A DNA stretch of 44,764 nt from a virus. Below are positions 3,718 to 44,764 of this stretch, piece by piece (the stretch's first letter is position 1; every line of letters begins with the position of its first letter). Location of the stretch: the IMG/VR virus record IMGVR_UViG_3300045988_107297. One strand, 5' to 3'. The notes below the pieces were generated by a model, which worked only from the letters and a program-made list of their open reading frames with translations, did not search any database and had not been told where the DNA came from. The position numbers were made by a program, and so were the translations under genes.

Positions 3718-4284
3718 ATGGAAATGACCTATGCATCCAGAGGTGTGGCAAATGCTGGCCTGGCCACTGGCATTGTCGGCGCCGCCCTTGGCACGCTGAA
3801 CGCTGTGGGCGGCCTTGGTGCCATGGCATTGAACGGTGGGCGTGTTGCCGAGTGCAGCGATAACCAGCCTATCAACCGGTACGAGCTCGATCTCGTGCAG
3901 AAGAACGCAAAGCTGGAATCCGACATTGCGCTGCGTGACGCGAACACCTACAATGACCAGAAGACGCTGGAAATGTACAAGTACATTGACGGGCGGCTGC
4001 GTGGCATTGAGGAAGTGCAGGCGGCGCAGGCCGTCCACAACCAGAAAACCGAGGACAGCTTCGTGCTGGCCCGGCAGGACATTGCCGCTGTGCGTGACAG
4101 CCTGACCGAGAAAATCAAGCTGGAAGCCGAGCGCCGGTGCTGCGGTGACAACTCCATCTTGAATTACGTGAACGCCACCTTCTACCCGAAGATGGTTGCG
4201 GACGTGACCACTGGAACCGGCACCACCGCACAGACCCTGTACAACCCGCTGCCTAAATGCGGCGAGTGCTGCAACGGTAACTGA
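3718..4284 (+). CDS. hypothetical protein: Gly/Ala-rich hydrophobic N-terminus, coiled coil, Cys-rich C-terminus
   Basis: RBS GAAAGGAG lies upstream. The N-terminus is GVANAGLATGIVGAALGTLNAVGGLGAMAL. The C-terminus carries RRCCGDN and KCGECCNGN. A hairpin terminator follows. Confidence 0.6.
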   Translation: MEMTYASRGVANAGLATGIVGAALGTLNAVGGLGAMALNGGRVAECSDNQPINRYELDLVQKNAKLESDIALRDANTYNDQKTLEMYKYIDGRLRGIEEVQAAQAVHNQKTEDSFVLARQDIAAVRDSLTEKIKLEAERRCCGDNSILNYVNATFYPKMVADVTTGTGTTAQTLYNPLPKCGECCNGN

Positions 4285-6132: not shown

Positions 6133-9100
6133 ATGCCCTATTCTGACCAGGAAGCGTTTCTGAACGCCTACCTTAAAAACTATGCAAAGGCCCAACAAAA
6201 CGCCGTGAACAGCGGCAAAACCGGCCTGAGCAGCGCCCGCTACACCGGACAGCAGGCAATGAATGCTGCACCCACAACTCTGCCCGACTATGGCGACATT
6301 GCAGGCAGTTTCACCACCGCCTACACGAAGCAGCTGGCGGCCGTTGAAGCCCAGCGCGAGAAGGAAGCGAAGGCAGCCCAGGCAGCAGCAGAAAAAGAAG
6401 CAAGGGCAGCCGCAAGTGCGGCGAAAAAAGCATCCTCTTCCACCACAAAGAGCAAGAAGCTGAAGAAGGAAGAGCTTAAAGCACTGGATGCAGAGCTGGA
6501 AGAACTGGCCAAAACGCGGGTGGCCCTGCAAGAAAGAAAAGAAACCCAAGATGCGAACACCCGCGAGCGCATCAAGGAGAACGTCGGAGACACTGCCGGT
6601 ATTTCCAGCCTTACAGCCGCAAGCAGAACCTTCGCACCTGAAAGGAAAGGCAGTGCCACAAAGAAAAGCCTTTCGCAACGGATTGTCGCTGGCGTGAAAG
6701 GTTTGGCAAAAGTCCCTTCTGCCGTCAAAGACGGCGTTGTGCAAGGCACTGCGCTGCACAACCGGATGAAGGCCGCGCGTGGTGGAGTGTCTGCCGAAGA
6801 TAGTGTGGATTTAGGCGGCGTCCAAACCCCGCAAGCAACGGCAGCAAAACAAAAATCCAGAACCAAAGCCCGAGCCTCTGTAGCAAAGCAGAACTTCACG
6901 ACACAGGAGCTGGATGCACGTCTGACCGCGACAAACCAGCGTATGCGGGAGCTGCAAAAGCAGGGAAAGACCAAAACTCGGGAATACCGGCAACTGCAAA
7001 ACCAGCATGACACCTATGCAACCGCGTTGGGCGTGGACTCTTTTGCTGGCCGCGCAGGCGCAACCGGACTTGGTGCAGTCTCCGGCTTTGCTGCTGGCTT
7101 GGCGAACATGGGCGATGCCACGGCTCGCGCAATCCGTGGTCAGTCTGCAAGCATGGATATTCCGGAGTATGAGGCAGCATCGGACGACCTGCAAGAAGCC
7201 AACGAGCAGCGGGACGCTCTGATTCAGATGGGCCGGGCCTACACCGACACGCCGAACGGCCCTGTCGCTACGCCTGAATTCCAGCAGGTGCTTGACCGCA
7301 TTGCAAGCGCAAAGGGTGTGCGGGCTGAAAATCAAGTAACCCCCGAGCGCAATCAAGTTGTGAGCAATATGCTGGACTTTGCCCAGAACCAGAACCAGAA
7401 AGCACAGGCGGGCCTTGACAACACCGGCCGGTTTTTGGTGGGCACAATCGGAAGTGTCGCGCAGAACCTTCCTGCCTTTGCAGCAGCGGCGGCCGTGCCA
7501 GAAGCTGCCCCCGTTTTGATTCCCGCCCTCATGGGCGTAAGCGCGGCAGGCAACCGGGAAAACGAGCTGGAACAACGCGGTGTGCCTCTGAATCAGGCTG
7601 TGTTGCGCAGTGGCCTGAGCGGCGCAGTGTCCGCCATTACCAACAAGCTGCCCCTTGAGCAGGGCGCAGAACTCATGGCCGGAAACGGCCCCGGTTTTGT
7701 CCGCGCTATGGCCCGGCAAGCACTGAGCGAAGGCGGGCAGGAAGCCTCTGAGTATGCAGCAGACTACGGCCTCGACGTTTTGGCCGGAGACCCGGATGCA
7801 AACTTCAGCCTTGCCGAACTTGGGCAGCAGGCGCTGGGCGGCGCACTGGGCGGCGCAATCAGCGCGGCCGGAAGCTCTCTCATTGGCAGCGGCATGAATC
7901 GCGCAAGAGAAGCGCTTGGGGCCAACGGGAACGCCCCTATGGACACGGATGTGCAGCAGGCAGAACCGGTATCGCCCGCCCCTGAAAACTCCGTATCCCC
8001 CGAACCTGAATCTGTATCACCCAGTGCTGAAACCGCCACACAGCAGCCGCTGGAAGCCACGCAGGAAGGCATTCCGGAGCTTGGCGTGGTAGCACCCGAT
8101 GCAGCCCCGAAAACTGCCATTGACGTGATTGTGGACGCATACCGCAACGGCACGCTGACAAACAAGCAGATTGACCAGCTGAAACCCGGCGGCGAACTGC
8201 GGCAAGCGTTTGAAGAGGCCACGGGCGTAACACTCCCAGACACCAGCAGCGAGACGCGGAAGGCGTTGAAGGCTGGAATGCAGGAAGAAATTCCCTATCT
8301 GCGGCCTGTTGACAGCGCCGAAAACGCGGGTTATGATGGAACCAATGAAGCCTATACAGGAGGTGCGAGCTATGACGGAACTGGAAGAACGAGCGGAAGT
8401 ATTGCGCAACCGGACGGAGAAGGACGAGAGGGAATTCCAGAATTATTACGCAACCCTGAAAACAGGGGGTGGCAAGGAAGCGGCGCAAATAATGTGGCAG
8501 AGAGGAACTCCGTTGGAGGAAATCAAGTATTACATGGACTTCTGACCGATTCCCCAGAAATGCAAGCAGCCCTTGAACGAAGTGGAGCCACACCCCTTGA
8601 GCTGAGAGACACGACCAGTGACCCTCAGCTCTTTTCATCGGCCCTGGAAGAAGCCCGGCAGAAAAATCCCCATGGCCTAATGGTGAGCCCGAAAACCGTC
8701 GAAGAGCTGAACCAGCCCGGAACCCGCACCTTTATGAGCGCAGACAATATGGCCGGTGCGCTGGTGACGGCGGACGGAGACATTGAAGCGGTGTTCAAGA
8801 ACCCGCAAAGTAAGGCGAAGCAGGCGGCAACCTCTCTTTTGATTACTGCCGTGGAAAACGGTGGCCGCAAGCTGGATTGCTATGGCCTTGATTTAGTAAC
8901 ACAATACAACCGAAGAGGTTTTGAAGCAGTCGCCCGTATCCCGTTCAATGCGGGAGCGGTGGAAGACGGCTGGACATATGGCGCGAAAGATGTTTATGTG
9001 ATGAAGCTGCTCGACGGCGTAACGGCGCAAGACATTGCGGGACGATTACGTATGGACGAAGCTGACGGCGGCTTCCATATGCAGACCGATGCAGAGCTTG

Positions 9101-12100
9101 CCAACCTTCCCGTATTCGACGACTACGACGAGGCGCTGGCATACCGCGACAGTCTGCTCACCACCCCCGCCGAAAGCGGCAGCATTCCAGAACTCATGCC
9201 CACCGCAAACCAGAGTGTGCAAGAGCCTATCCCCACATTGGCTGACCACCCCAACACGGTAGGCGCGGCGCAACGGCAATTTGACCGGCCCGAAGTTGCC
9301 AGCCAGAGCCACATGACCCGCGACACAGACAATGATTACCTGCAACCTCTTGTGCAGAGAGATCAAGGCGGTGAGCAACAGTTTACCCACGAGCGCGTAA
9401 GCAACGCAGACCGAATGAAGATTGCGGCCAACAGCATGGAGACCGAAAGCCGCGACGAGATCGTGTCCCGCTTGACCAGCAAAGAGCAGTGGGACGCAGA
9501 TGACACCGCGCTGGCCGGAAGCGTACTACGCGAGTGGGATTCGGCTTTGGGCGATATGGACAAGAGCGGCGAGGCGTACAAGCAGGCCCTTGCCCAGAAG
9601 ATGAAGTTTACCCAGCGGATTAGTGAATCCAACACCATGAATGCGCAAGCACTGCAAATGACGCAGGAGTTTACCACTCCTGAAACCGCCGTGATGCAGT
9701 CGCAGAAGAGCATTAAGACTGCCGTTGACCGTGTAGCAAATGGCAAAAACAAGCGAAAGTTCGACCAATACAAGGGCGATGTGGAGACGGCCGTTGCAAA
9801 CGCAGAGGATACGGCCACGCAAAAAGCCAATGACGCGGTGCAGAAAGCCATTGAAGCTGTGCAGCAGCAGGCCACAGACACGGATGCACAGCCCAGCAAT
9901 GCGACAAAACGCGGCAAGCGGACAGAAAAAACGCAGGATGAGGCGAACCAGCCCTCTGCCGAAGATGTACTGAGCCGCAAGCTGGCGGCTGCCGTAAAGC
10001 GGCACGTAACGGACGGGAAAGAATCCAGTGTTGAGGACGTTGTACAAAGCGAAATGCTTTCCCAGCTGACCAAGATGGCGACAAGCGACACCGAAAAAGG
10101 TGCACGGCCCCAAAAGCCGAAGCTGACGGTTGAGGAAAAGCTGCAAACCGCGTTGGACAATCAAGAGACATACTCGCGGGTATGGGAAGCGGCAAAGGAA
10201 GCGCTTGCCGAAAGGTACAAAGACAACGCTGATATGAGCAGCCGCCTGCAAGCATTCTTCGATGACGCCGGAGAATCCGGTTTGTACGGAAAAGACACGA
10301 TAAAGCAACTTGTGTCCAAGTACACCAAAGACCAGGGGATTGACTTCAAGGCCCTAGTCAAAAAAAGTCGCGGAGACAAACAGGCTACCCTCCGGGAAAT
10401 TCAGGATCGCATTCAAGACACCTTCGACATGGACGACACGCAAGCCCAACGTATCGCCGAAATGGCCATGAACGAGTATTCCAAAGCATTGTCGGAAGCG
10501 GCGGACGCAAACCTGAAAGCCATCCGGGGCGGGAAAGGCAAAACGAGCAAGTCCACGCACGACCAATTTTTGGAGCTGTTGCGCATGGGCGTTTACGATG
10601 AAGGCGACGTGCAGGCGTATGCTGCATCCAAATTCGGTGTGCAGCCGTTGACCGCCGAACAGTGCCAGCAAATTCTCGACCTTGCAGAGCGGGCGGAACA
10701 GCTCCCCGTGAACAGCCGTGACCGGGTGTTGATGGAAAGTGAGGTAGCAACGATTGCGGCCCAAAATCTGAGCGGCTCTTTCCGCGATGCATGGGACACA
10801 TGGCGCTACACATCCATGTTGCTTAGTGCCCGTACCAACGAAAAAAACATCGGCGGCAACGTGTCGATGGGCCTGAATGCCCGCGCAAAGGACGTTGTTC
10901 TTGCAGCCATGGAGTGGATGATTAACAAAGTTGCCCCTGGAAAGGTTGAACGCACAACGGCGATTGTAACCCCGTTCACCGAGAACGGTCGCGCACTGCT
11001 TGCAGCTTCCGCCAACGATGCCGACTTGAACAGTTATCGTCAGCTTTCCGGCACAAGCGAGCGCATGAATCTGGCGCGGGACATGCAGCGGCACCGCGAA
11101 GCCTTCCGGAGCCTTGCATCCCCTGATAGTAACAACATTGTAACCAAGTTCCTGTCCGCTTTGGACAGCCTAGCTGCAAGGGCAAGCGCGCCACTGGAAG
11201 TCTCCGACTATGAGGGCACTTTTGGTGTATTGGAAGGTCTGCGCGGCATTAACAAAGCCATGGATGCCGCGATTGACTGGATTCAGGATTCTGCTGCGAG
11301 TGGCACAAACAAGGGCGTTCTCGGCGTTGCTGGCCTGAAAAACAACTATGCGTGGTCGTTGGCGCAATACCTCAAAGCAAACGGCGCAGACGCAAGCATT
11401 TTCGACGCGACGGACGCGCAAAGCCTGGCTCTGCTTGACAAGGCCAGAGCACACGCCATCCAACAGGCGTTGATTAACACCTACCATGCGGAGTCCAAAA
11501 CGGCCTCTGCCGTGGCCAAATTCAAGGCCGACTTGCGAGGTTCCGACAACTTTGCATCCCGTGTGCTGGGCGACATCGTGGAAGGCCAGCTGCCCTTTGT
11601 GAAAACGCCCATCAATGTGGCAAAGCAGAGCTTGCAGTATAGCCCGCTGGGCTTCGTGTCTACTGCCGCCGAGGGCGTAAAGGTTGCGCGTGGAACTGGC
11701 GATGTAAACCTTATGCTCGACCATGCGGCGGCTTCTGTCACCGGCAGCGTGTTGTTTGCTCTGGGCGGAATTTTGGCCGAGAAGGGCTTGCTCACCGCTG
11801 GAATTGGGGACGACGAAAAGGACAAGGCAAATCTGGAAGGCCGCCAAGAATACAGCCTCCAGCTGGTGGACGACGACGGGAAGCTGCACAGCTACACCAT
11901 CGACTGGGCCAACGCTGCCGCTATTCCGATGTTTGCCGGAGCAGAGTATGCAAAGCTGGCTGCAAGTGATGGGGCCTCTCTGAATAGCGTTGCGTCCGCG
12001 TCTCAACAAGTGCTTGAGCCTCTGCTGGAAATGTCCTTCTTGCAGGGCTTGAATAACAACCTTGAATCTCTGCGCTACTCCGAGGATCCTTACATTTACG

Positions 12101-12909
12101 GCATGGCGAAACAATCCCTGAGCAGCTATGCAACACAGGGTATTCCAACGCTTGCCGGGCAAGTCGCCAGAAGCATTGACCCCGTGCGGCGCAGTACATA
12201 CAGCGGCACGACCGGCATTGAATCCGACATCGGCTACACGGCAAACAAAATCCGCAACAGAATCCCGTTCCTGTCCGAGACTGGGCAGCCGTACATTGAT
12301 GCATTCGGCGACACCCAGTCGAATACCGGCGGAAGTTTTGCCGGGCGGCTGGCATACAATATGTTCTCCCCCGGCTACTATTCCGAGACGACGGACGACC
12401 CCGTGAAGCAGGGTGTGCTGGATTTGGCCAACAGCTCTGGAGACAACAGCGTAATTCCGGAAGTCGCAGAAAAGAAAGTGTCTTGGACAGTTGACAAGGG
12501 AAAGCACACCTACCAGCTTTCTCCGCAAGAATACACCGACTTTGCAACACAGCAAGGCCAACTGCGCAAGGACATGGCAGAAGCCGTGTTGGATTCCCGC
12601 TACACCGAAGAGCAGCAAGTGGAGCTTATCCCGGAGCTGTACGGCACCGCAGGCAAGATTGCGGCTCTGGACATTGTGCCCGACTTCTCCGTTGGCACCG
12701 AAGAGCGGAAGCGCATTGATATCTACAATCAGTATGGCATTGATGGGCTGATGAACTGGATTGCCTACCGGAAGTATGCGAACACGGACGGCAAGACGGG
12801 CATTAACCAGAGCGAGGCCCGTGCATGGCTGAATGACAGCGACATGAGCGATGCCATGAAGGATGCATTCTGGGCGGCGAGTTCGTCCAACTGGAAATCT
12901 TCTCGATGA
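6133..12909 (+). CDS. giant 2258-aa multi-domain protein (candidate virion-packaged ejection / polyvalent protein)
   Basis: One uninterrupted ORF with RBS AAGGAGG. It has an Ala/Lys/Glu/Gln-rich N-terminus, a hydrophobic stretch (nt about 7424-7560), a GNAT-like looking module (nt about 8620-9020) and a long C-terminal globular region. Confidence 0.8.
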   Translation: MPYSDQEAFLNAYLKNYAKAQQNAVNSGKTGLSSARYTGQQAMNAAPTTLPDYGDIAGSFTTAYTKQLAAVEAQREKEAKAAQAAAEKEARAAASAAKKASSSTTKSKKLKKEELKALDAELEELAKTRVALQERKETQDANTRERIKENVGDTAGISSLTAASRTFAPERKGSATKKSLSQRIVAGVKGLAKVPSAVKDGVVQGTALHNRMKAARGGVSAEDSVDLGGVQTPQATAAKQKSRTKARASVAKQNFTTQELDARLTATNQRMRELQKQGKTKTREYRQLQNQHDTYATALGVDSFAGRAGATGLGAVSGFAAGLANMGDATARAIRGQSASMDIPEYEAASDDLQEANEQRDALIQMGRAYTDTPNGPVATPEFQQVLDRIASAKGVRAENQVTPERNQVVSNMLDFAQNQNQKAQAGLDNTGRFLVGTIGSVAQNLPAFAAAAAVPEAAPVLIPALMGVSAAGNRENELEQRGVPLNQAVLRSGLSGAVSAITNKLPLEQGAELMAGNGPGFVRAMARQALSEGGQEASEYAADYGLDVLAGDPDANFSLAELGQQALGGALGGAISAAGSSLIGSGMNRAREALGANGNAPMDTDVQQAEPVSPAPENSVSPEPESVSPSAETATQQPLEATQEGIPELGVVAPDAAPKTAIDVIVDAYRNGTLTNKQIDQLKPGGELRQAFEEATGVTLPDTSSETRKALKAGMQEEIPYLRPVDSAENAGYDGTNEAYTGGASYDGTGRTSGSIAQPDGEGREGIPELLRNPENRGWQGSGANNVAERNSVGGNQVLHGLLTDSPEMQAALERSGATPLELRDTTSDPQLFSSALEEARQKNPHGLMVSPKTVEELNQPGTRTFMSADNMAGALVTADGDIEAVFKNPQSKAKQAATSLLITAVENGGRKLDCYGLDLVTQYNRRGFEAVARIPFNAGAVEDGWTYGAKDVYVMKLLDGVTAQDIAGRLRMDEADGGFHMQTDAELANLPVFDDYDEALAYRDSLLTTPAESGSIPELMPTANQSVQEPIPTLADHPNTVGAAQRQFDRPEVASQSHMTRDTDNDYLQPLVQRDQGGEQQFTHERVSNADRMKIAANSMETESRDEIVSRLTSKEQWDADDTALAGSVLREWDSALGDMDKSGEAYKQALAQKMKFTQRISESNTMNAQALQMTQEFTTPETAVMQSQKSIKTAVDRVANGKNKRKFDQYKGDVETAVANAEDTATQKANDAVQKAIEAVQQQATDTDAQPSNATKRGKRTEKTQDEANQPSAEDVLSRKLAAAVKRHVTDGKESSVEDVVQSEMLSQLTKMATSDTEKGARPQKPKLTVEEKLQTALDNQETYSRVWEAAKEALAERYKDNADMSSRLQAFFDDAGESGLYGKDTIKQLVSKYTKDQGIDFKALVKKSRGDKQATLREIQDRIQDTFDMDDTQAQRIAEMAMNEYSKALSEAADANLKAIRGGKGKTSKSTHDQFLELLRMGVYDEGDVQAYAASKFGVQPLTAEQCQQILDLAERAEQLPVNSRDRVLMESEVATIAAQNLSGSFRDAWDTWRYTSMLLSARTNEKNIGGNVSMGLNARAKDVVLAAMEWMINKVAPGKVERTTAIVTPFTENGRALLAASANDADLNSYRQLSGTSERMNLARDMQRHREAFRSLASPDSNNIVTKFLSALDSLAARASAPLEVSDYEGTFGVLEGLRGINKAMDAAIDWIQDSAASGTNKGVLGVAGLKNNYAWSLAQYLKANGADASIFDATDAQSLALLDKARAHAIQQALINTYHAESKTASAVAKFKADLRGSDNFASRVLGDIVEGQLPFVKTPINVAKQSLQYSPLGFVSTAAEGVKVARGTGDVNLMLDHAAASVTGSVLFALGGILAEKGLLTAGIGDDEKDKANLEGRQEYSLQLVDDDGKLHSYTIDWANAAAIPMFAGAEYAKLAASDGASLNSVASASQQVLEPLLEMSFLQGLNNNLESLRYSEDPYIYGMAKQSLSSYATQGIPTLAGQVARSIDPVRRSTYSGTTGIESDIGYTANKIRNRIPFLSETGQPYIDAFGDTQSNTGGSFAGRLAYNMFSPGYYSETTDDPVKQGVLDLANSSGDNSVIPEVAEKKVSWTVDKGKHTYQLSPQEYTDFATQQGQLRKDMAEAVLDSRYTEEQQVELIPELYGTAGKIAALDIVPDFSVGTEERKRIDIYNQYGIDGLMNWIAYRKYANTDGKTGINQSEARAWLNDSDMSDAMKDAFWAASSSNWKSSR

Positions 12910-13264: not shown

Positions 13265-14419
13265 TTAAGGGGTTTCGACGATATGTTTGACTTCATCCGC
13301 CAGCTTCGCGAATTCTTCCATCGCGGCAGAAATGTGAGAATCCTGTGAAATGTAATAATCGTCCGTAACGGAACTGCCGATCTGGTGGCCGATGGCAAGT
13401 TGCAATGCCTCTTTATCCACCTTCGCTTTGGTCGCAATGCTTGCGTATGTGTGGCGGCAAGAGTAAGGCACATAACGATGCGGGTTTTGTACACCAATTT
13501 CTTCCAGCCCGGAGTAAAATTCCCGCACCCGGAAGTTTCGGGTGTTCCACGCGCTTCCGGTCGGGCTGCGAAAGATTTTCTGCCCGGGCTTTGCGGCGTT
13601 GTAGAAGCGCATAAAAACGTCCCACGTGATGGGGTCGAGAACGATGTACCGGTTCTTCCCGGCGGCGGTTTTGGAGCCTTCCAACCAGATGCCGTGGCGC
13701 TCAAAGTCAATGCAATCGTTGCGAGCAATCTTTGCAAGGTCAGCCATGCGGCAGCCGCTCAAACAAAGAAACCAAATGATTCCCGGAACCCGCTCATGCC
13801 GGTGCTTGTAAAGCAAACGCAAATCTTCGTCATCAAACGGCACCCGCTGGCCCTTCACCTCGGCGGTTAGCTTCAACCCCTCGGAGTAGTCCGTCTGGTG
13901 GATTCCGTGCTGCACACACCACATACAGAGCTTGTGCATAAGAGAGCGCAACTTGTGCTGGTGGGACTTTGATTTGCCTTCATCCTCGGCCCGGAACAAG
14001 ACAGCCTCCAGCGTTTCTTTCCGCACGTTGATTGCCTTTATCTTGTGCAGCTCCTTCATGTAACGCCATGCGTACTCCACGTCTTTCAAGTATTTTTCCG
14101 AGTTTTGCCGGAAAGCGCGGTCTGAGATCACCGCGTCATACACCTGTTGCATGGTGTAGTTGCGATACTCAAGATCAGGCTCTTGCTCCGAGGCCGCGAG
14201 AATGGCCCTCTCCGCGTCTTGTTTGGTTTTGTAGCAACCGATATAGGCTCCCCTGTAAACGGCCTTGTAGGGCGAACTGCGCCCTTGCAGACGCGCAATG
14301 GAGCCGTTCCCCTTTGCCCTTCTTGCCTTTGGCCGTGTGGTTGCCGTCTGCCGTTTGCCACACCACGGGCAAAACAGCGCCCCTTCTGGGATGTCTCTTG
14401 CACATCTCACACACGTCAT
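13265..14419 (-). CDS. int: tyrosine recombinase / integrase with N-terminal zinc ribbon
   Basis: C-terminal HRCRHTYAS...LAIGHQIGSSVTDDYY is the R..HxxR..Y catalytic signature. The N-terminus carries CVRCARDIPEGALFCPWCG. GAGGTG lies 6 nt upstream of ATG 14419. Confidence 0.9.
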   Translation of the reverse strand: MTCVRCARDIPEGALFCPWCGKRQTATTRPKARRAKGNGSIARLQGRSSPYKAVYRGAYIGCYKTKQDAERAILAASEQEPDLEYRNYTMQQVYDAVISDRAFRQNSEKYLKDVEYAWRYMKELHKIKAINVRKETLEAVLFRAEDEGKSKSHQHKLRSLMHKLCMWCVQHGIHQTDYSEGLKLTAEVKGQRVPFDDEDLRLLYKHRHERVPGIIWFLCLSGCRMADLAKIARNDCIDFERHGIWLEGSKTAAGKNRYIVLDPITWDVFMRFYNAAKPGQKIFRSPTGSAWNTRNFRVREFYSGLEEIGVQNPHRYVPYSCRHTYASIATKAKVDKEALQLAIGHQIGSSVTDDYYISQDSHISAAMEEFAKLADEVKHIVETP

Positions 14420-14429
14420 GGCTTGCACC

Positions 14430-16196: not shown

Positions 16197-16256
16197 AGAA
16201 AAAGACCTTTCTTTTTGTGCAAATAGCCAAATGTTTACGCGATTGAAAATTGACTA

Positions 16257-16285
16257 TTGAAAAATAGCCACTTGGCTACTATAAT
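16257..16285 (+). promoter_or_regulatory. early rightward promoter (TTGAAA-17 nt-TATAAT)
   Basis: -35 TTGAAA at 16257-16262, -10 TATAAT at 16280-16285, with an exact 17-nt spacer. Confidence 0.65.
16265..16278. promoter_or_regulatory. operator palindrome TAGCCACTTGGCTA
   Basis: A perfect 14-bp palindrome lies inside the promoter spacer. An extra half-site AATAGCCA lies at 16222-16229. Confidence 0.6.
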
Positions 16286-26992: not shown

Positions 26993-27179
26993 GCTGAAGA
27001 AATACCCGTTTTGCGGCGGAAAAGCTGCCGTGTTTGTGCACAACGGCGTGAAGGTTTTGTGCCTCACCTGTGGCGCGCAGACCGATTCCCACATTGATTT
27101 TATGATGCGGCCCGGCCATAGCTCCAACGCCGTGCAGCAGGTCGTGGACGCATGGAACAGGAGGACTGACAATGGCTAA
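26985..27179 (+). CDS. Lar-family restriction alleviation-like zinc-ribbon protein
   Basis: YPFCGGKAAV...CLTCGAQ...VVDAWNRR matches the Lar_restr_allev pattern. Confidence 0.55.
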   Translation: MDELKKYPFCGGKAAVFVHNGVKVLCLTCGAQTDSHIDFMMRPGHSSNAVQQVVDAWNRRTDNG

Positions 27180-27810
27180 AGCGGTACTTATCAGCATCCG
27201 CCCGGAGTGGGTGGAGAAGATTGCCAACGAGTGGAAGACAATCGAGGTTCGCAAGACAAAGCCATATTTGGAAACGCCTTTCAAGTGCTATATATACTGC
27301 ACAAACACAAGGCCGTTCCTTGTGTGGGGTGATGTTTTCCGGGGCGATTGGTTTACGGAGTTTACCCATCTTTCGGGGTATGGCAGAGCAGAAGCAGATA
27401 AAATCTGGGACGTTTTCAACGGGCATGTTGTTGGGGAGTTTGTGTGTGACAAGATCACATGGCTAACTCACATCGGTTTTTCCGGGTTGCCTGGGATTCG
27501 GCTAGCCGCGATGAAAAACGGGCACACGATAGATGATTCCTTTGACTTTTCCAAAAGCTGCCTAACAACGCCCCAAATTGAAAAATACCTGGGCGGTAAG
27601 GATGGGTACGCTTGGCACATTTCCAAGCTGGAAATCTACGATGACCCGAAACAGCTCAACCGGTTCAAACCGTGGATCCGGGAATGCAAATACAACGACT
27701 TGGGTTTTGCAATTCCAAATTGCGGGACGTGCCAAGATTGCATTGTAAAAAAACCGCCCCAGAGTTGGTGCTATGTGGAGGAATTAAAACCGGAGGGTGC
27801 GGGACGATGA
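27172..27810 (+). CDS. ASCH/PUA-like domain protein
   Basis: The N-terminus AVLISIRPEWVEKIANEWKTIEVRKT is ASCH-like. Confidence 0.5.
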   Translation: MAKAVLISIRPEWVEKIANEWKTIEVRKTKPYLETPFKCYIYCTNTRPFLVWGDVFRGDWFTEFTHLSGYGRAEADKIWDVFNGHVVGEFVCDKITWLTHIGFSGLPGIRLAAMKNGHTIDDSFDFSKSCLTTPQIEKYLGGKDGYAWHISKLEIYDDPKQLNRFKPWIRECKYNDLGFAIPNCGTCQDCIVKKPPQSWCYVEELKPEGAGR

Positions 27811-28303: not shown

Positions 28304-28506
28304 GTGATTACATCACTTTTGCACAACTGGCGGACGCTCTGAGGCGCTGCGGCAGAACACCGACATCATCGGACCCATGCAAAGGCTGCGCTTACAATGA
28401 TGGCACAGTGCGGTGCGTGGCGAAAATGACTTCGCGGGCCGCGCAGGTGATTGAGCTTTTCGCGGCGGATGAGCCGAAGAAGGGAGGTGAGCCTAGTGAC
28501 GTATGA
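28300..28506 (+). CDS. hypothetical protein
   Basis: ATGA overlap, 68 aa. Confidence 0.5.
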   Translation: MSDYITFAQLADALRRCGRTPTSSDPCKGCAYNDGTVRCVAKMTSRAAQVIELFAADEPKKGGEPSDV

Positions 28507-28903
28507 CGAGCGAAAAGCCTGGCTGAGGCGTTACCAGGACGCGCTGGACGACTACCGCATGGCAACCGCCCGGCTGGAAGAGGCCAACACGCAAGCCACG
28601 AAGTGCACGGCCAGCGTGTCCTCTACTCTGGGACGCGGCGGCACAAGCGACCACATCCCGGCGGCCGTGGAGCGGATCGAAGCCATACGCGAGGATGCAA
28701 ACCAGGCCATGGCAGAGGCAAAGGCCGCGCTGGTCGAAATTTCGGCCGCGCTGAAAAAGCTGGAAAGCCGGACAGAGAGGACAGTGCTTGCGTTGCGGTA
28801 CGTGGACGGCTGCACATGGCAGCAGGTGGCGGACAAATGCGGCTATAGCATTGACTGGGTTTATGCACTGCACCGAGCCGCCGTGAAAAATCTGGATAAA
28901 TAA
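28496..28903 (+). CDS. sigma-70 region-4-like late transcription regulator
   Basis: GTG start after AGGGAGGTGA. The C-terminus ERTVLALRYVDGCTWQQVADKCGYSIDWVYALHRAAVKNL is a region-4 HTH. In many Firmicute phages the equivalent gene sits just before terS. Confidence 0.6.
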   Translation: MTYDERKAWLRRYQDALDDYRMATARLEEANTQATKCTASVSSTLGRGGTSDHIPAAVERIEAIREDANQAMAEAKAALVEISAALKKLESRTERTVLALRYVDGCTWQQVADKCGYSIDWVYALHRAAVKNLDK

Positions 28904-28906
28904 AAT

Positions 28907-28946
28907 AAGAGGCCACATCCAAAAGGGTGTGACCTCTTGTTTTTTA
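28907..28946. terminator. bidirectional rho-independent terminator between convergent units
   Basis: AAGAGGCCACATCC (28907-28920) pairs with GGGTGTGACCTCTT (28925-28938), with one mismatch and one G-U pair. T-runs are present on both strands. Confidence 0.75.
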
Positions 28947-28950
28947 TTCG

Positions 28951-29268
28951 TCAAATTAGCCCGAAATGTTCCGCCAACAAAAAGCGGATATAATCCGGAC
29001 AATTCCGCTGTGACCCACACCAGTTTTGCATGGTGCGCAGAGGGATGCAAGCAGCCCGGGCAAAGGCAGATTGGCTCATTCCGGTGGCTTCTGCGAGTTC
29101 CCGCATATTCATGTGCGCAACGTCCCAAAAGCGGGACAGACGTACGACTTCGGCGTCGAGATCAACGCAACCCGGCGCGTCGTCGGGGACGCTCATGGTC
29201 ACATTGTTTTTAAAGACTTCCTTCGGCTGCTCTTGAGCCATTGCAAAGAGTTCTGCTTTGTTCCACAT
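28951..29268 (-). CDS. HTH DNA-binding protein, Aca-like terminal gene of the operon
   Basis: RBS CAGGAGGAAA before ATG 29268. HTH: MRELAEATGMSQSAFARAACIPLRTMQNW. Confidence 0.65.
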   Translation of the reverse strand: MWNKAELFAMAQEQPKEVFKNNVTMSVPDDAPGCVDLDAEVVRLSRFWDVAHMNMRELAEATGMSQSAFARAACIPLRTMQNWCGSQRNCPDYIRFLLAEHFGLI

Positions 29269-29294: not shown

Positions 29295-29329
29295 GTTTCA
29301 ATCCACGTCCCCCGCACGGGGGGGACGAC
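29295..29329 (-). repeat. solitary type I-C-like CRISPR repeat unit
   Basis: The minus strand reads GTCGTCCCCCCCGTGCGGGGGACGTGGATTGAAAC. Compare the I-C repeat GTCGCGCCCCGCACGGGCGCGTGGATTGAAAC. There is a single copy, no spacer array and no cas genes. Confidence 0.7.
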
Positions 29330-29332
29330 ACA

Positions 29333-29749
29333 TCACCAGATAGGTGATACTGCCTCGATGGTAAACGGGATGTTTTCCCGCTTACCAGACTTTGTGGGAG
29401 CGGAAACAACGATCGTTTTGATCGCTGCGTCTATTGCGGCCTCAACGCTTCCGGTCACGCGGATTGGGTCGCATGTGATTATTACGAGGTTGGCGTTGCC
29501 GTCACTCGTCCGATAGGCGGAACGAAGATGCCAGCCATCCTTTGTGATGTAGTCCGGCAGCGAAAGCGCAACCCTTTTGTTGTGCGGTGCATCTCCCTGG
29601 AATCCGCACTCCCATTGCCAGCCGGAAGGAACGGGAAGGGCGGTAAACGAAAAGCCGTCCACCTGCGTGAAGCAGGCAGATTCGTCCGGCTCGCGGGTGG
29701 TTGAGCGCCTAACGGCGTATTTTACGGATACAACGACCTCAGTTGTCAT
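29333..29749 (-). CDS. hypothetical protein (138 aa)
   Basis: RBS AAAGGAGGA. No recognisable motif. Confidence 0.6.
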   Translation of the reverse strand: MTTEVVVSVKYAVRRSTTREPDESACFTQVDGFSFTALPVPSGWQWECGFQGDAPHNKRVALSLPDYITKDGWHLRSAYRTSDGNANLVIITCDPIRVTGSVEAAIDAAIKTIVVSAPTKSGKRENIPFTIEAVSPIW

Positions 29750-29827
29750 GGCTATGTCCTCCTTTGGCCTGCCTCATCAGTACCGGGCGGCCATCCCCGG
29801 CAGACGGCCCGAAGGCCGTTTCGGCTG

Positions 29828-30181: not shown

Positions 30182-30204
30182 GGTTATTCCCTCCTTCTTT
30201 GTGT

Positions 30205-30279
30205 ACCCATGAGCGCCCACCCCTTACGGGGTGGCCGGGCTTGCACCGGCGGCGCGTGAGCGTCGGCCTTGCGGGTCAG
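30205..30279 (-). ncRNA. 75-nt structured intercistronic element, copy A
   Basis: About 80% identical to 32246..32320. Three hairpins are preserved by compensatory changes. The strand assignment is assumed from the operon direction. Confidence 0.5.
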
Positions 30280-32210: not shown

Positions 32211-32245
32211 GGTGTAGCCTCCTTGTAGATGTGCTAGGGCTTTCA

Positions 32246-32320
32246 ACCCATGAGCGCCCGCCCATCTGGGCGGCTGGACTTGCACCAGCGGCGGCGGATG
32301 CCGTCGGCCTTGCGGGTCAG
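32246..32320 (-). ncRNA. 75-nt structured intercistronic element, copy B
   Basis: Paralogue of 30205..30279, with the same length and the same position relative to the flanking ORFs. Confidence 0.5.
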
Positions 32321-32744: not shown

Positions 32745-32793
32745 GTCGTCCTCCTTACTCTTCTGCTCGCGGCCCTGTGCCGCTTGCTGTGAC

Positions 32794-32897
32794 TATATGA
32801 TAGCACATATATGCTAGCATATGCAATAGGCAATGTGCACAAAGATATGTGCTATCATATGTGCAAGATGTATGCTTGCATATAACCTCCGTATAAT
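32794..32897. promoter_or_regulatory. operator-rich divergent promoter region
   Basis: A 16-bp perfect inverted repeat pairs 32795-32810 with 32845-32860. The palindrome ATATGCTAGCATAT lies at 32809-32822, and TGCAAG/CTTGCA at 32862-32880. TATAAT lies at 32892-32897 on the + strand. TTGCAT-18-TATCAT lies on the - strand at 32797-32826. Confidence 0.6.
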
Positions 32898-32924
32898 GTA
32901 TCATATACTTGGAGGTGATATGGC

Positions 32925-33245
32925 ATGAGCACGACAGAGGCACAGCGCAGAGCTACGGCGCGGTATCTGGCAAAGCAGGTCACCCTCACGGTGCGGGTGT
33001 CGCCAGAGCAGGCCGAGACGCTGAGAGCCGCAGCAGCTGGCGCAGGCATGAGCTTGACACGGTACCTGGTGAGCGCAGCAGAGGCCCGGCGGGCAGCACC
33101 AGAGGCAGAGCCAGACGGCGACCGCATACGGCTCAGCCTGAGAGCTGATGCAGTCCAGGGCCTAGAGGCTGACGGCGAGACGCCAGCGCAGACAGCGGCA
33201 CGGCTGCTAGCTGACGCTATCAGGCAAGCAAGACAAGACACATAA
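32925..33245 (+). CDS. ribbon-helix-helix DNA-binding protein
   Basis: RRATARYLAKQVTLTVRVSPEQAETLRAAAAGAGMSLTRYLVSAA has a beta-strand plus two-helix RHH layout. RBS GGAGGTG. Confidence 0.6.
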   Translation: MSTTEAQRRATARYLAKQVTLTVRVSPEQAETLRAAAAGAGMSLTRYLVSAAEARRAAPEAEPDGDRIRLSLRADAVQGLEADGETPAQTAARLLADAIRQARQDT

Positions 33246-34245: not shown

Positions 34246-34318
34246 GCCGTCATAGCTCAGTTGGCAGAGCGGCTGCCTTGTAAGTAGCAAGCCGAGGGTT
34301 CGAGACCTTCTGACGGCC
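34246..34318 (+). tRNA. tRNA-Thr (anticodon UGU)
   Basis: Manual fold: GCCGTCA acceptor, GCTC/GAGC D-stem, GCTGC-CTTGTAA-GTAGC anticodon arm, GAGGG-TTCGAGA-CCTTC T-arm, TGACGGC. CCA is not encoded. Confidence 0.85.
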
Positions 34319-34428
34319 CCCCAAGGCCGATGACCCGCTAAAATATTTTGTCTGTGTCCAGGTGGGATTTCGCGGCAGGCCTTCCCCGCGCGCCTCTCTC
34401 TGATGCGTACCATGCGGGGCTTTTTTAT

Positions 34429-34502
34429 TGGGCTGTGGCCAAACGGTAAGGCATGGGACTTTGACTCCCAGATAGCAGGTTCGACACCTGCCAGCCCATC
34501 CA
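34429..34502 (+). tRNA. tRNA-Gln (anticodon UUG)
   Basis: Manual fold: TGGGCTG/CAGCCCA acceptor, GCCAAACGGTAAGGC D-arm (as in bacterial tRNA-Gln), TGGGA-CTTTGAC-TCCCA anticodon arm, GCAGG-TTCGACA-CCTGC T-arm. CCA is encoded. Confidence 0.85.
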
Positions 34503-44641: not shown

Positions 44642-44764
44642 TGCCGGGATGGAGCAGCACAGAGGCAACGTTCGCTGCCACCTTTGATGTTGTCGAAGAC
44701 GTGCGGTTTTCGGCTGACCTTAGTAGTACAGATGCAACATTCGATTTCTCTTTCAGTGGGGGAA
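44641..44764 (+). CDS. 5' portion of the gene continued at 2..295 (truncated by the window end)
   Basis: ATG 44641 is in frame through the terminal repeat. Confidence 0.6.
   Translation, partial: MPGWSSTEATFAATFDVVEDVRFSADLSSTDATFDFSFSGG
44646..44764. repeat. terminal direct repeat, copy 2
   Basis: Identical to 1..119. Confidence 0.95.

Follow-up and report, generated by a model that had tools for sequence, protein, structure and literature searches.

A solitary type I-C CRISPR repeat unit in an operon of a temperate phage, a candidate RNA anti-CRISPR

Solitary repeat units have been described as RNA anti-CRISPRs (Racrs) by Camara-Wilpert et al. (2023, Nature 623:601; PMC10651486), who also cite Faure et al. 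(2019) for such units. The validated type I-C example, RacrIC1, lies 11 nt behind a homologue of acrIC5 and is bicistronic with it (PMC10651486). Viral mini-arrays and Cracr RNAs have been described as well, including crRNA-like regulators of type I-C (bioRxiv 10.1101/2024.10.29.618823). In type I-C systems, Cas5c recognises the cut site together with nucleotides of the downstream handle, and it sits at the handle end of Cascade (PMC8524198). The Cas5c of B. halodurans needs U22-G23-G24, and its cleavage is nearly abolished by a U22G change; that of S. mutans tolerates this change (PMC8524198).

The repeat unit within its phage operon

The window, that is, the whole stretch of DNA that was analysed (44,764 nt; IMG/VR record IMGVR_UViG_3300045988_107297), has its first 100 nt recurring at position 44646, with ~119 nt repeated overall (1-119 and 44646-44764). 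This terminal recurrence identifies the window as a phage genome that is complete and circularly permuted, ~44.6 kb in length (about 44,645 bp). Genes were found for a terminase, a portal protein, a major head protein, a DnaB-like helicase, a methyltransferase and a GH25 lysin, together with an integrase (13265-14428, minus strand) that marks the phage as temperate. DNA matches to isolated phages were only short and distant, an example being a ~70%-identical stretch of primase gene shared with Faecalibacterium phage FP_Toutatis. Two phage tRNA genes, Thr(TGT) at 34246-34320(+) and Gln(TTG) at 34429-34502(+), are located just upstream of the terminase gene, and a 2258-aa ORF at 6133-12909(+), with zero Pfam matches, may encode a giant tail or host-interaction protein.

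Read on the minus strand, positions 29329 to 29295 give the 35-mer GTCGTCCCCCCCGTGCGGGGGACGTGGATTGAAAC, which is the sequence that an earlier note on this DNA had singled out. From its sequence, uniqueness and fold, we treat this element (29295..29329) as a solitary type I-C CRISPR repeat unit (SRU) and a candidate RNA anti-CRISPR. The RNA folds (-16.6 kcal/mol) into a 2-nt 5' overhang (GU, 29329-29328), an 8-bp stem formed by the 5' arm CGUCCCCC (29327-29320) and the 3' arm GGGGGACG (29313-29306), a 6-nt loop (CCGUGC, 29319-29314) and an 11-nt 3' tail, the handle UGGAUUGAAAC (29305-29295). This is the type I-C repeat architecture as given in PMC8524198, as the earlier note had recognised, and a Cas5c cut is predicted between 29306 and 29305. 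The SRU occupies a 64-nt intergenic gap between a 138-aa ORF without named homologues (orf138; 29333..29749, minus strand) and a 105-aa helix-turn-helix (HTH) gene (28951..29268, minus strand). Of the two spacings reported previously, the 26 nt to the HTH start codon (ATG, 29268-29266) proved correct, but the 4 nt after the stop of the 138-aa ORF did not: its TGA is at 29335-29333 and leaves 3 nt (29332-29330). The ribosome-binding site of the HTH gene, AGGAGG at 29283-29278, begins 12 nt past the repeat handle.

Taken alone, the hairpin exceeds shuffled sequence in stability by a modest margin only (z = -1.8). Scanning the SRU against Rfam gave CRISPR-DR9 at 23.3 bits (E=0.018; gathering threshold 45) and CRISPR-DR37 at 18.2 bits (threshold 40), both below threshold; these two models cover repeat subfamilies other than that of the SRU. 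No U-run follows the stem, the tail being UGGAUUGAAAC, and the terminator scan did not report the SRU, which therefore lacks the make-up of an intrinsic terminator.

The absence of a second copy and of any spacer-repeat periodicity, claimed in the earlier note, was borne out. The 35-mer is unique in the window at <=3 mismatches (0 expected; 100 shuffles), while its 12-nt handle, GTGGATTGAAAC, has no further exact copy there, the few matches with 2 mismatches being distant and at chance level. When the SRU was locally aligned with the flanking +-400 nt on both strands, scores of 14-18 were obtained, against a 95th percentile of 20 for the genome-wide null; since the scores stay within this null, a second repeat, even a degenerate one, is absent. 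Unique 35-mer, uncopied handle and flanks at null level together indicate that the SRU is truly solitary. A type I-C array comprises at least two repeats with spacers of ~33-37 nt, and a Cracr or viral mini-array has a second (pseudo)repeat on the far side of its spacer; the SRU is a single copy with no spacer so bounded. Of the features that Camara-Wilpert et al. (2023) give for solitary repeat units and candidate Racrs, those evident from the sequence were found, namely a repeat match in sequence and predicted structure, no partner repeats, and an intergenic position on a mobile element that is not beside cas genes. No cas domains or genes were present among the ~30 window ORFs scanned, in agreement with the note.

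The minus-strand operon that contains the SRU (early operon) has the HTH gene as its last cistron, and the SRU is close to its 3' end. The order of elements is orf112, twister-sister ribozyme, orf72, orf299 (of a PHROG family annotated 'primase'), orf67, orf114, twister-sister ribozyme, orf117, hammerhead II ribozyme, orf138, the repeat and the HTH gene. The operon head is formed by a divergent control region (32745..32924) carrying a perfect 16-nt inverted repeat, ATATGATAGCACATAT, at 32795-32810 and 32845-32860, which looks like the operator pair of a lysis-lysogeny switch; a ribbon-helix-helix gene with NikA/TacA-like matches (32925-33245) is found on its other side. This is likely the operator and promoter region of the operon, the promoter being assigned by inference, as a consensus scan gave no sigma-70 match there. 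At its other end, the operon terminates in a hairpin and U-run (28898..28938, minus strand; hairpin placed at 28914-28931 by the terminator scan) common to a converging sigma-70 region 4/DUF1492 gene (28451-28903, plus strand). The promoter scan found no dedicated promoter for the SRU, the sole promoter-like match nearby being at chance level. A candidate promoter recognised by eye at 30911-30883 (TTGCAC, 17 nt, TATAGT) was set aside, as the scanner was silent and the -35 box agreed at 3/6 positions.

Three other gaps of this operon hold self-cleaving ribozymes, all on the minus strand: a type II hammerhead just upstream of orf138 (29763..29826; Rfam RF02276, 64 bits vs threshold 37), a twister-sister between the 114-aa and 117-aa ORFs (30200..30279; RF02681, 85.8 bits) and a second twister-sister after the first cistron (32241..32320; RF02681, 78.3 bits). 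The hammerhead would set the 5' end of an RNA comprising orf138, the SRU and the HTH gene. In relatives of the phage (L096-L104), twister-sister, hammerhead II, pistol and RAGATH-5 elements were seen in the same operon. A hammerhead fills the gap upstream of orf138 in the window and six relatives, and in three other relatives a twister-sister does, so one ribozyme class replaces another at this syntenic slot; because the classes alternate, what is conserved in the gap appears to be cleavage and not the class of ribozyme. One relative (L105) has neither, its gap being short and its orf138 disrupted. No relative has a ribozyme in the slot of the repeat or a repeat in a ribozyme slot.

The proteins flanking the SRU were also investigated. 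By sequence, orf138 had no match in Pfam, PHROG or PDB, and only 21 protein clusters were related to it, all nameless and without a Pfam domain; those nearer to it come from contigs of phage size. AlphaFold gave a confident, beta-rich model (pLDDT 86.5), for which Foldseek found no fold match in PDB. The fold does recur in a 207-aa protein annotated helix-turn-helix, BFVD A0A8S5SFD7 of Myoviridae sp. ctuev19 (43% identity over 138 columns, TM 0.91), which, because of its extra length, looks like a natural fusion of the orf138 domain with an HTH, the two products encoded on either side of the SRU. On this reading orf138 is tied functionally to the HTH protein, which says nothing on orf138 being an anti-CRISPR; orf138 may be a protein partner, perhaps an Acr or a sensor domain. 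The HTH protein has weak PHROG transcriptional-regulator matches and >248 homologues, some named 'YiaG' or 'helix-turn-helix' at source. Compared with PDB sequences as a check for Aca proteins, it gave nothing significant (best E=0.69).

Related phages and matching host arrays

Relatives were gathered by pattern and protein scans of IMG/VR and by look-ups in metagenome assemblies. The orf138-unit-HTH layout was recovered in ~13 related phage contigs, every one of which has an I-C-like unit in the same slot. Units of a first group show loop-only differences (CCCCCGCACGGGGG, CCCCCGTGCGGGGG, CCCCTGTGCGGGGG and, in the window, CCCCCCCGTGCGGGGG). Those of a second group have altered stems with compensation, and read GTCGTTCTCCGCATGGAGAACG(G/A)GGTTTGAAAT in L096 and L098, GTCGTTCTCCACATGGAGGACGGGGATTGAAAT in L099 and GTCGTCCTCCACATGGAGGACGGGGGTTGAAAT in L105 and L130-L132; as patterns, this second family was written GTCGTTCTCC....GGAGAACG[GA]GGTTTGAAAT and GTCGTCCTCCACATGGAGGACGGGGGTTGAAAT. 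Across the alignment of units, 80/80 stem cells pair, two pairs have changed from C-G to U-A (one via a U-G intermediate), and the observed covariation and pairing were reached by 0/500 shuffles. The variants all fold alike. The linker from the unit to the ribosome-binding site varies by indels, and the ribosome-binding site of the HTH gene starts 4-12 nt past the handle in all relatives. These compensatory stem changes could instead have come about by import of whole units from host arrays through recombination, without selection in the phage. The second-family units of L096, L098, L099 and L105 have a G for U at position 22, and no arrays with the exact handle of this family were found.

The unit is restricted to a single clade and is lacking in more distant relatives: in L121, a terminator and promoter come after the orf138 homologue (57% identity), and in phages with ~65%-identical HTH genes (L122-L129, L133-L135) a terminator and an unrelated hairpin stand upstream of that gene. 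This short hairpin (e.g. CACCTCACATGGAGGTG) comes after the terminator, ~130 nt upstream of the HTH gene; its loop and inner stem resemble those of the second unit family and the I-C handle is missing; either decay of a unit or coincidence could account for it. The pattern used detected no prophage copy among 185k reference genomes. BLAST returned nothing from plasmids with the 33-mer as query, nor from phages with the 35-mer; the low-complexity filter may be responsible.

Arrays with matching repeats were then identified in bacteria. Among GTDB genomes, the pattern matched arrays in a Syntrophobacteraceae MAG and in the uncultured Clostridiales genome UMGS1206. In the UMGS1206 locus, genes for Cas8c/Csd1, Cas7, Cas4, Cas1 and Cas2 precede an array whose repeat is GTCGTCCCCCGCACGGGGGACGTGGATTGAAAT; the last repeat of this array ends in C and is identical at 33/33 positions to the units of two sister phages (L001 and L003). 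Among named relatives of the Cas7 encoded there, the nearest (87-88% identity) come from gut Oscillospiraceae and Oscillibacter. Within this array (L008, 405-995), a degenerate repeat is followed by 446 nt of non-repeat sequence and then by two more repeats. No literature on 'UMGS1206' was found. A pattern scan of metagenomes yielded 87 loci, for the most part arrays and many of them from human gut. One such array (L011), on a piece of bacterial chromosome that also encodes glutamine synthetase III and a P-type ATPase, has the repeat GTCGTCCCCCCCGTGCGGGGGACGTGGATTGAAAT, identical to the window unit at 34/35 positions. Each of the four phage loop variants (GCAC, GTGC, CCCCTGTGC and CCCCCCCGTGC; 4/4) also occurs as an array repeat, and a single array (L021; ERZ834769 NODE-18), which adjoins a Cas5d-domain ORF and ORFs sized like those of the UMGS1206 I-C operon, holds three of them (GCAC, GTGC and CCCCTGTGC). 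The final nucleotides differ, being ...GAAAC in the phage units and ...GAAAT in most host repeats of this stem family. In the array-bearing loci analysed, bacteria with this repeat carry I-C cas genes.

The expectations of the earlier note regarding hosts and relatives are consistent with these data. It had called for a host lineage with a matching I-C repeat, as seen in UMGS1206 and L011, and had guessed at Oscillospiraceae, the family to which the nearest named Cas7 relatives point. It had also set conservation at the same position in related phages against the drift of a mere terminator, and in the ~13 contigs both hairpin and handle are kept.

Several single I-C arrays of gut bacteria (L021, L023, L060, L011) mix repeat variants that differ in the loop only, including GCAC, its inverse GTGC, ATGC and variants in the length of a C-run, a hint that loops are flipped or that recombination inside arrays is frequent. 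In a different element (L038, L074, L094), a solitary I-C repeat, GTCGTCCCCCTTGTGGGGGACGTGGATTGAAAT, stands directly behind a good promoter (TTGACA...TATATT) with a hairpin after it, and this is the classic stand-alone Racr layout. Mini-arrays, in which a good and a degenerate I-C repeat enclose a single spacer, were seen in L058/L068, L080/L084 and L117 (6129-6228), the last an IMG/VR contig; L058 and L068 have equal flanks and different spacers.

Spacers (n=1052) were collected from the 87 metagenome and 3 genome loci and compared with the phages. The only non-chance match to the window was that of spacer 11 of a 110-repeat I-C array (L075_sp11; ERZ1026860), which agrees with 27210-27243(-) at 30/34 positions (E=1.4e-5 per query; ~0.015 expected over all queries). 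This protospacer-like site is inside a 212-aa ORF (27172-27810) and has the 5' flank CTC; the I-C PAM is given as TTC in PMC8406640. None of the 1052 spacers matched the window exactly, and against 234 kb of related phage loci they gave nothing at E<=0.001. The UMGS1206 spacers made only chance matches of 9-15 nt to the window and five sister loci. Junctions between phage and array were absent from the 87 metagenome loci.

Proposed action and alternative readings

On balance, we think it probable that the SRU is a phage-borne solitary mimic of the I-C repeat of its host, itself probably a member of the Oscillospiraceae, and that it is a candidate RNA anti-CRISPR of the RacrIC type, an interpretation that the computational tests support. 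In its favour are the I-C architecture and solitary state of the SRU, the units kept by relatives, the array repeats that match in stem, loop and handle, the single 30/34 spacer match, the validated RacrIC1 and the catalogued unit of a sister phage. The SRU would be transcribed within the early polycistronic mRNA, between orf138 and the HTH gene. Cas5c of the host would recognise the 8-bp hairpin and the UGG...UUGAAAC tail, bind the SRU, cut it between 29306 and 29305 and remain on the handle. Cas7 and Cas8c would then assemble on the downstream non-guide RNA, which is the HTH mRNA, and the resulting dead-end complexes would withdraw Cas subunits from phage-targeting crRNAs and so inhibit interference. 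The DNA of the phage itself would not become a target, because the repeat end (AAC) occupies the PAM position, as it does in arrays. Points against this interpretation include the G at position 22 of second-family units, given what the B. halodurans Cas5c requires; the ...GAAAC ends of the phage units compared with the usual host ...GAAAT; the lack of a recognisable Acr in orf138, of a dedicated promoter and of a prophage copy in the reference genomes searched; spacers with no exact match to the window and none to the related phage loci; and stem changes that recombination with host arrays could have imported.

Since neighbouring gaps hold self-cleaving ribozymes, the SRU could also be a Cas5c-dependent RNA processing site or regulatory switch, the final member of a row of RNA-cleaving modules between genes, although we consider this unlikely. 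In detail, and with no better prospects, cleavage of the orf138-HTH junction by Cas5c would start a Cas7 filament that covers the HTH ribosome-binding site. HTH expression and the stability of orf138 mRNA would then depend on an active I-C system, which is compatible with decoy activity. Ribozymes in three other gaps of the operon fit such a role, as does the upstream gap that keeps cleavage across the swap of hammerhead and twister-sister. Cas5c and these ribozymes leave identical ends, a 2',3'-cyclic phosphate and a 5'-OH (PMC8524198 for Cas5c). The ribosome-binding site, 4-12 nt past the handle, would fall within the first Cas7 footprints, and the orf138 fold occurs in the BFVD protein annotated helix-turn-helix. 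Against it, repeat and ribozymes never exchange slots in relatives, there is no precedent for a phage gene processed via a host protein that is absent from many hosts, and sister-clade phages have their HTH gene behind a terminator without such an element; the whole is drawn from layout.

Improbable, in our view, is a role at the level of DNA, in which the SRU would be the relic of a captured repeat or a patch of homology for recombination between phage and host array, any RNA activity being incidental. The phage loop variants are exactly those of host arrays, which fits repeated exchange, and array integration has been suggested for solitary repeats (PMC10651486, introduction). However, the phage has its own integrase, phage-array junctions numbered 0 in the 87 metagenome loci, and the position and orientation of the unit, 3 nt past a stop codon and ahead of a ribosome-binding site, are fixed while the linker changes.

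There is very little to recommend the SRU as half of a mini-array, or as a crRNA-like guide of the Cracr type, through which the Cascade of the host would repress a cas or toxin promoter in that host. Viral crRNA-like regulators including type I-C have been described (bioRxiv 10.1101/2024.10.29.618823), and other elements carry mini-arrays of the same repeat family (L058/L068, L080/L084, L117). Here, however, a second repeat is absent, even in degenerate form, and the would-be spacer consists of the ribosome-binding site and the HTH start, with indels among relatives. A generic GC-rich hairpin with a chance likeness to a CRISPR repeat, working as an mRNA stabiliser, attenuator or terminator, would agree with the z of only -1.8 and the sub-threshold Rfam matches, but it is the least credible reading of all, as no U-run follows the stem, the exact 35-mer is unexpected by chance, and the (near-)identity to true array repeats extends over 33-35 nt, the unpaired 11-nt handle included; these array matches effectively refute it.

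The SRU is a further, well-documented example of CRISPR-repeat mimicry, here in phages that probably infect gut Oscillospiraceae, bacteria that are difficult to culture and few of whose phage-host links are known. The repeat itself directs attention to hosts with one particular family of I-C repeats. The unit variants are natural mutants for probing what Cas5c needs for trapping, and the ribozyme-rich operon offers a tractable place to study self-cleaving ribozymes in phage mRNAs. Should the processing-site reading be true, the phage would sense the presence of CRISPR-Cas and retune a regulator accordingly.

Comparison with described systems

The I-C arrays of gut Oscillospiraceae (UMGS1206, L008; L021) share their repeat with the phage units, at 33/33 to 34/35 positions. 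They have spacers of ~33-40 nt, a leader and adjacent cas genes, whereas the phage has a single unit, probably inside an mRNA. Cracr RNAs and mini-arrays are, like the window unit, phage-borne CRISPR-like RNAs without cas genes that exploit Cas proteins of the host; they need a repeat-flanked spacer and complementarity to a target, whereas the window has one repeat and no spacer.

RacrIF1 (PMC10651486) follows the same proposed logic, in which the crRNA endonuclease processes or binds the mimic, leading to aberrant Cas7-containing complexes. It differs in being of type I-F, with Cas6f staying on the hairpin, and in being a small RNA with its own promoter. As Cas5c of type I-C stays on the downstream handle, the decoy filament in the window would form on the HTH mRNA.

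The SRUFinder table (PMC10651486) lists, as type I-C, the unit GTCGTCCCCTGTGCGGGGGACGTGGATTGAAAC at 16229-16261 of IMGVR_UViG_3300010266_000024, as well as a 32-nt I-C unit of UGV-GENOME-0223375. The former is the unit of one of the relatives analysed here (L101; contig range 12288-20602, HTH at locus position 4001), and occupies the same slot in the same phage family. Because the unit of a sister phage is in a published catalogue, the window unit is of an already known, catalogued kind; its own 35-nt variant, with a loop 2 nt longer, was not in the part of the catalogue searched. Unlike the present analysis, the catalogue comes without context, conservation or host arrays, and what is gained beyond an entry is the fixed slot, the compensatory stems, the loops in common with arrays and a further family of units whose handle is altered.

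The concept on which the earlier note had relied, that solitary repeats of phages act as Racrs, is published, and RacrIC1 (PMC10651486) validates it for type I-C. Found in a prophage of Bifidobacterium, RacrIC1 has a recognisable AcrIC5 homologue upstream, and rescue of a targeted phage has been demonstrated for it; the window unit, by contrast, has upstream an ORFan without a known Acr match, an HTH gene directly after it, and probably an Oscillospiraceae host. Both are solitary I-C repeat mimics of temperate phages, a few nt behind a gene for a small protein. RacrIC1 is co-transcribed with its protein gene and predicted to engage Cas5, and the same layout, with probable co-transcription, is seen in the window.
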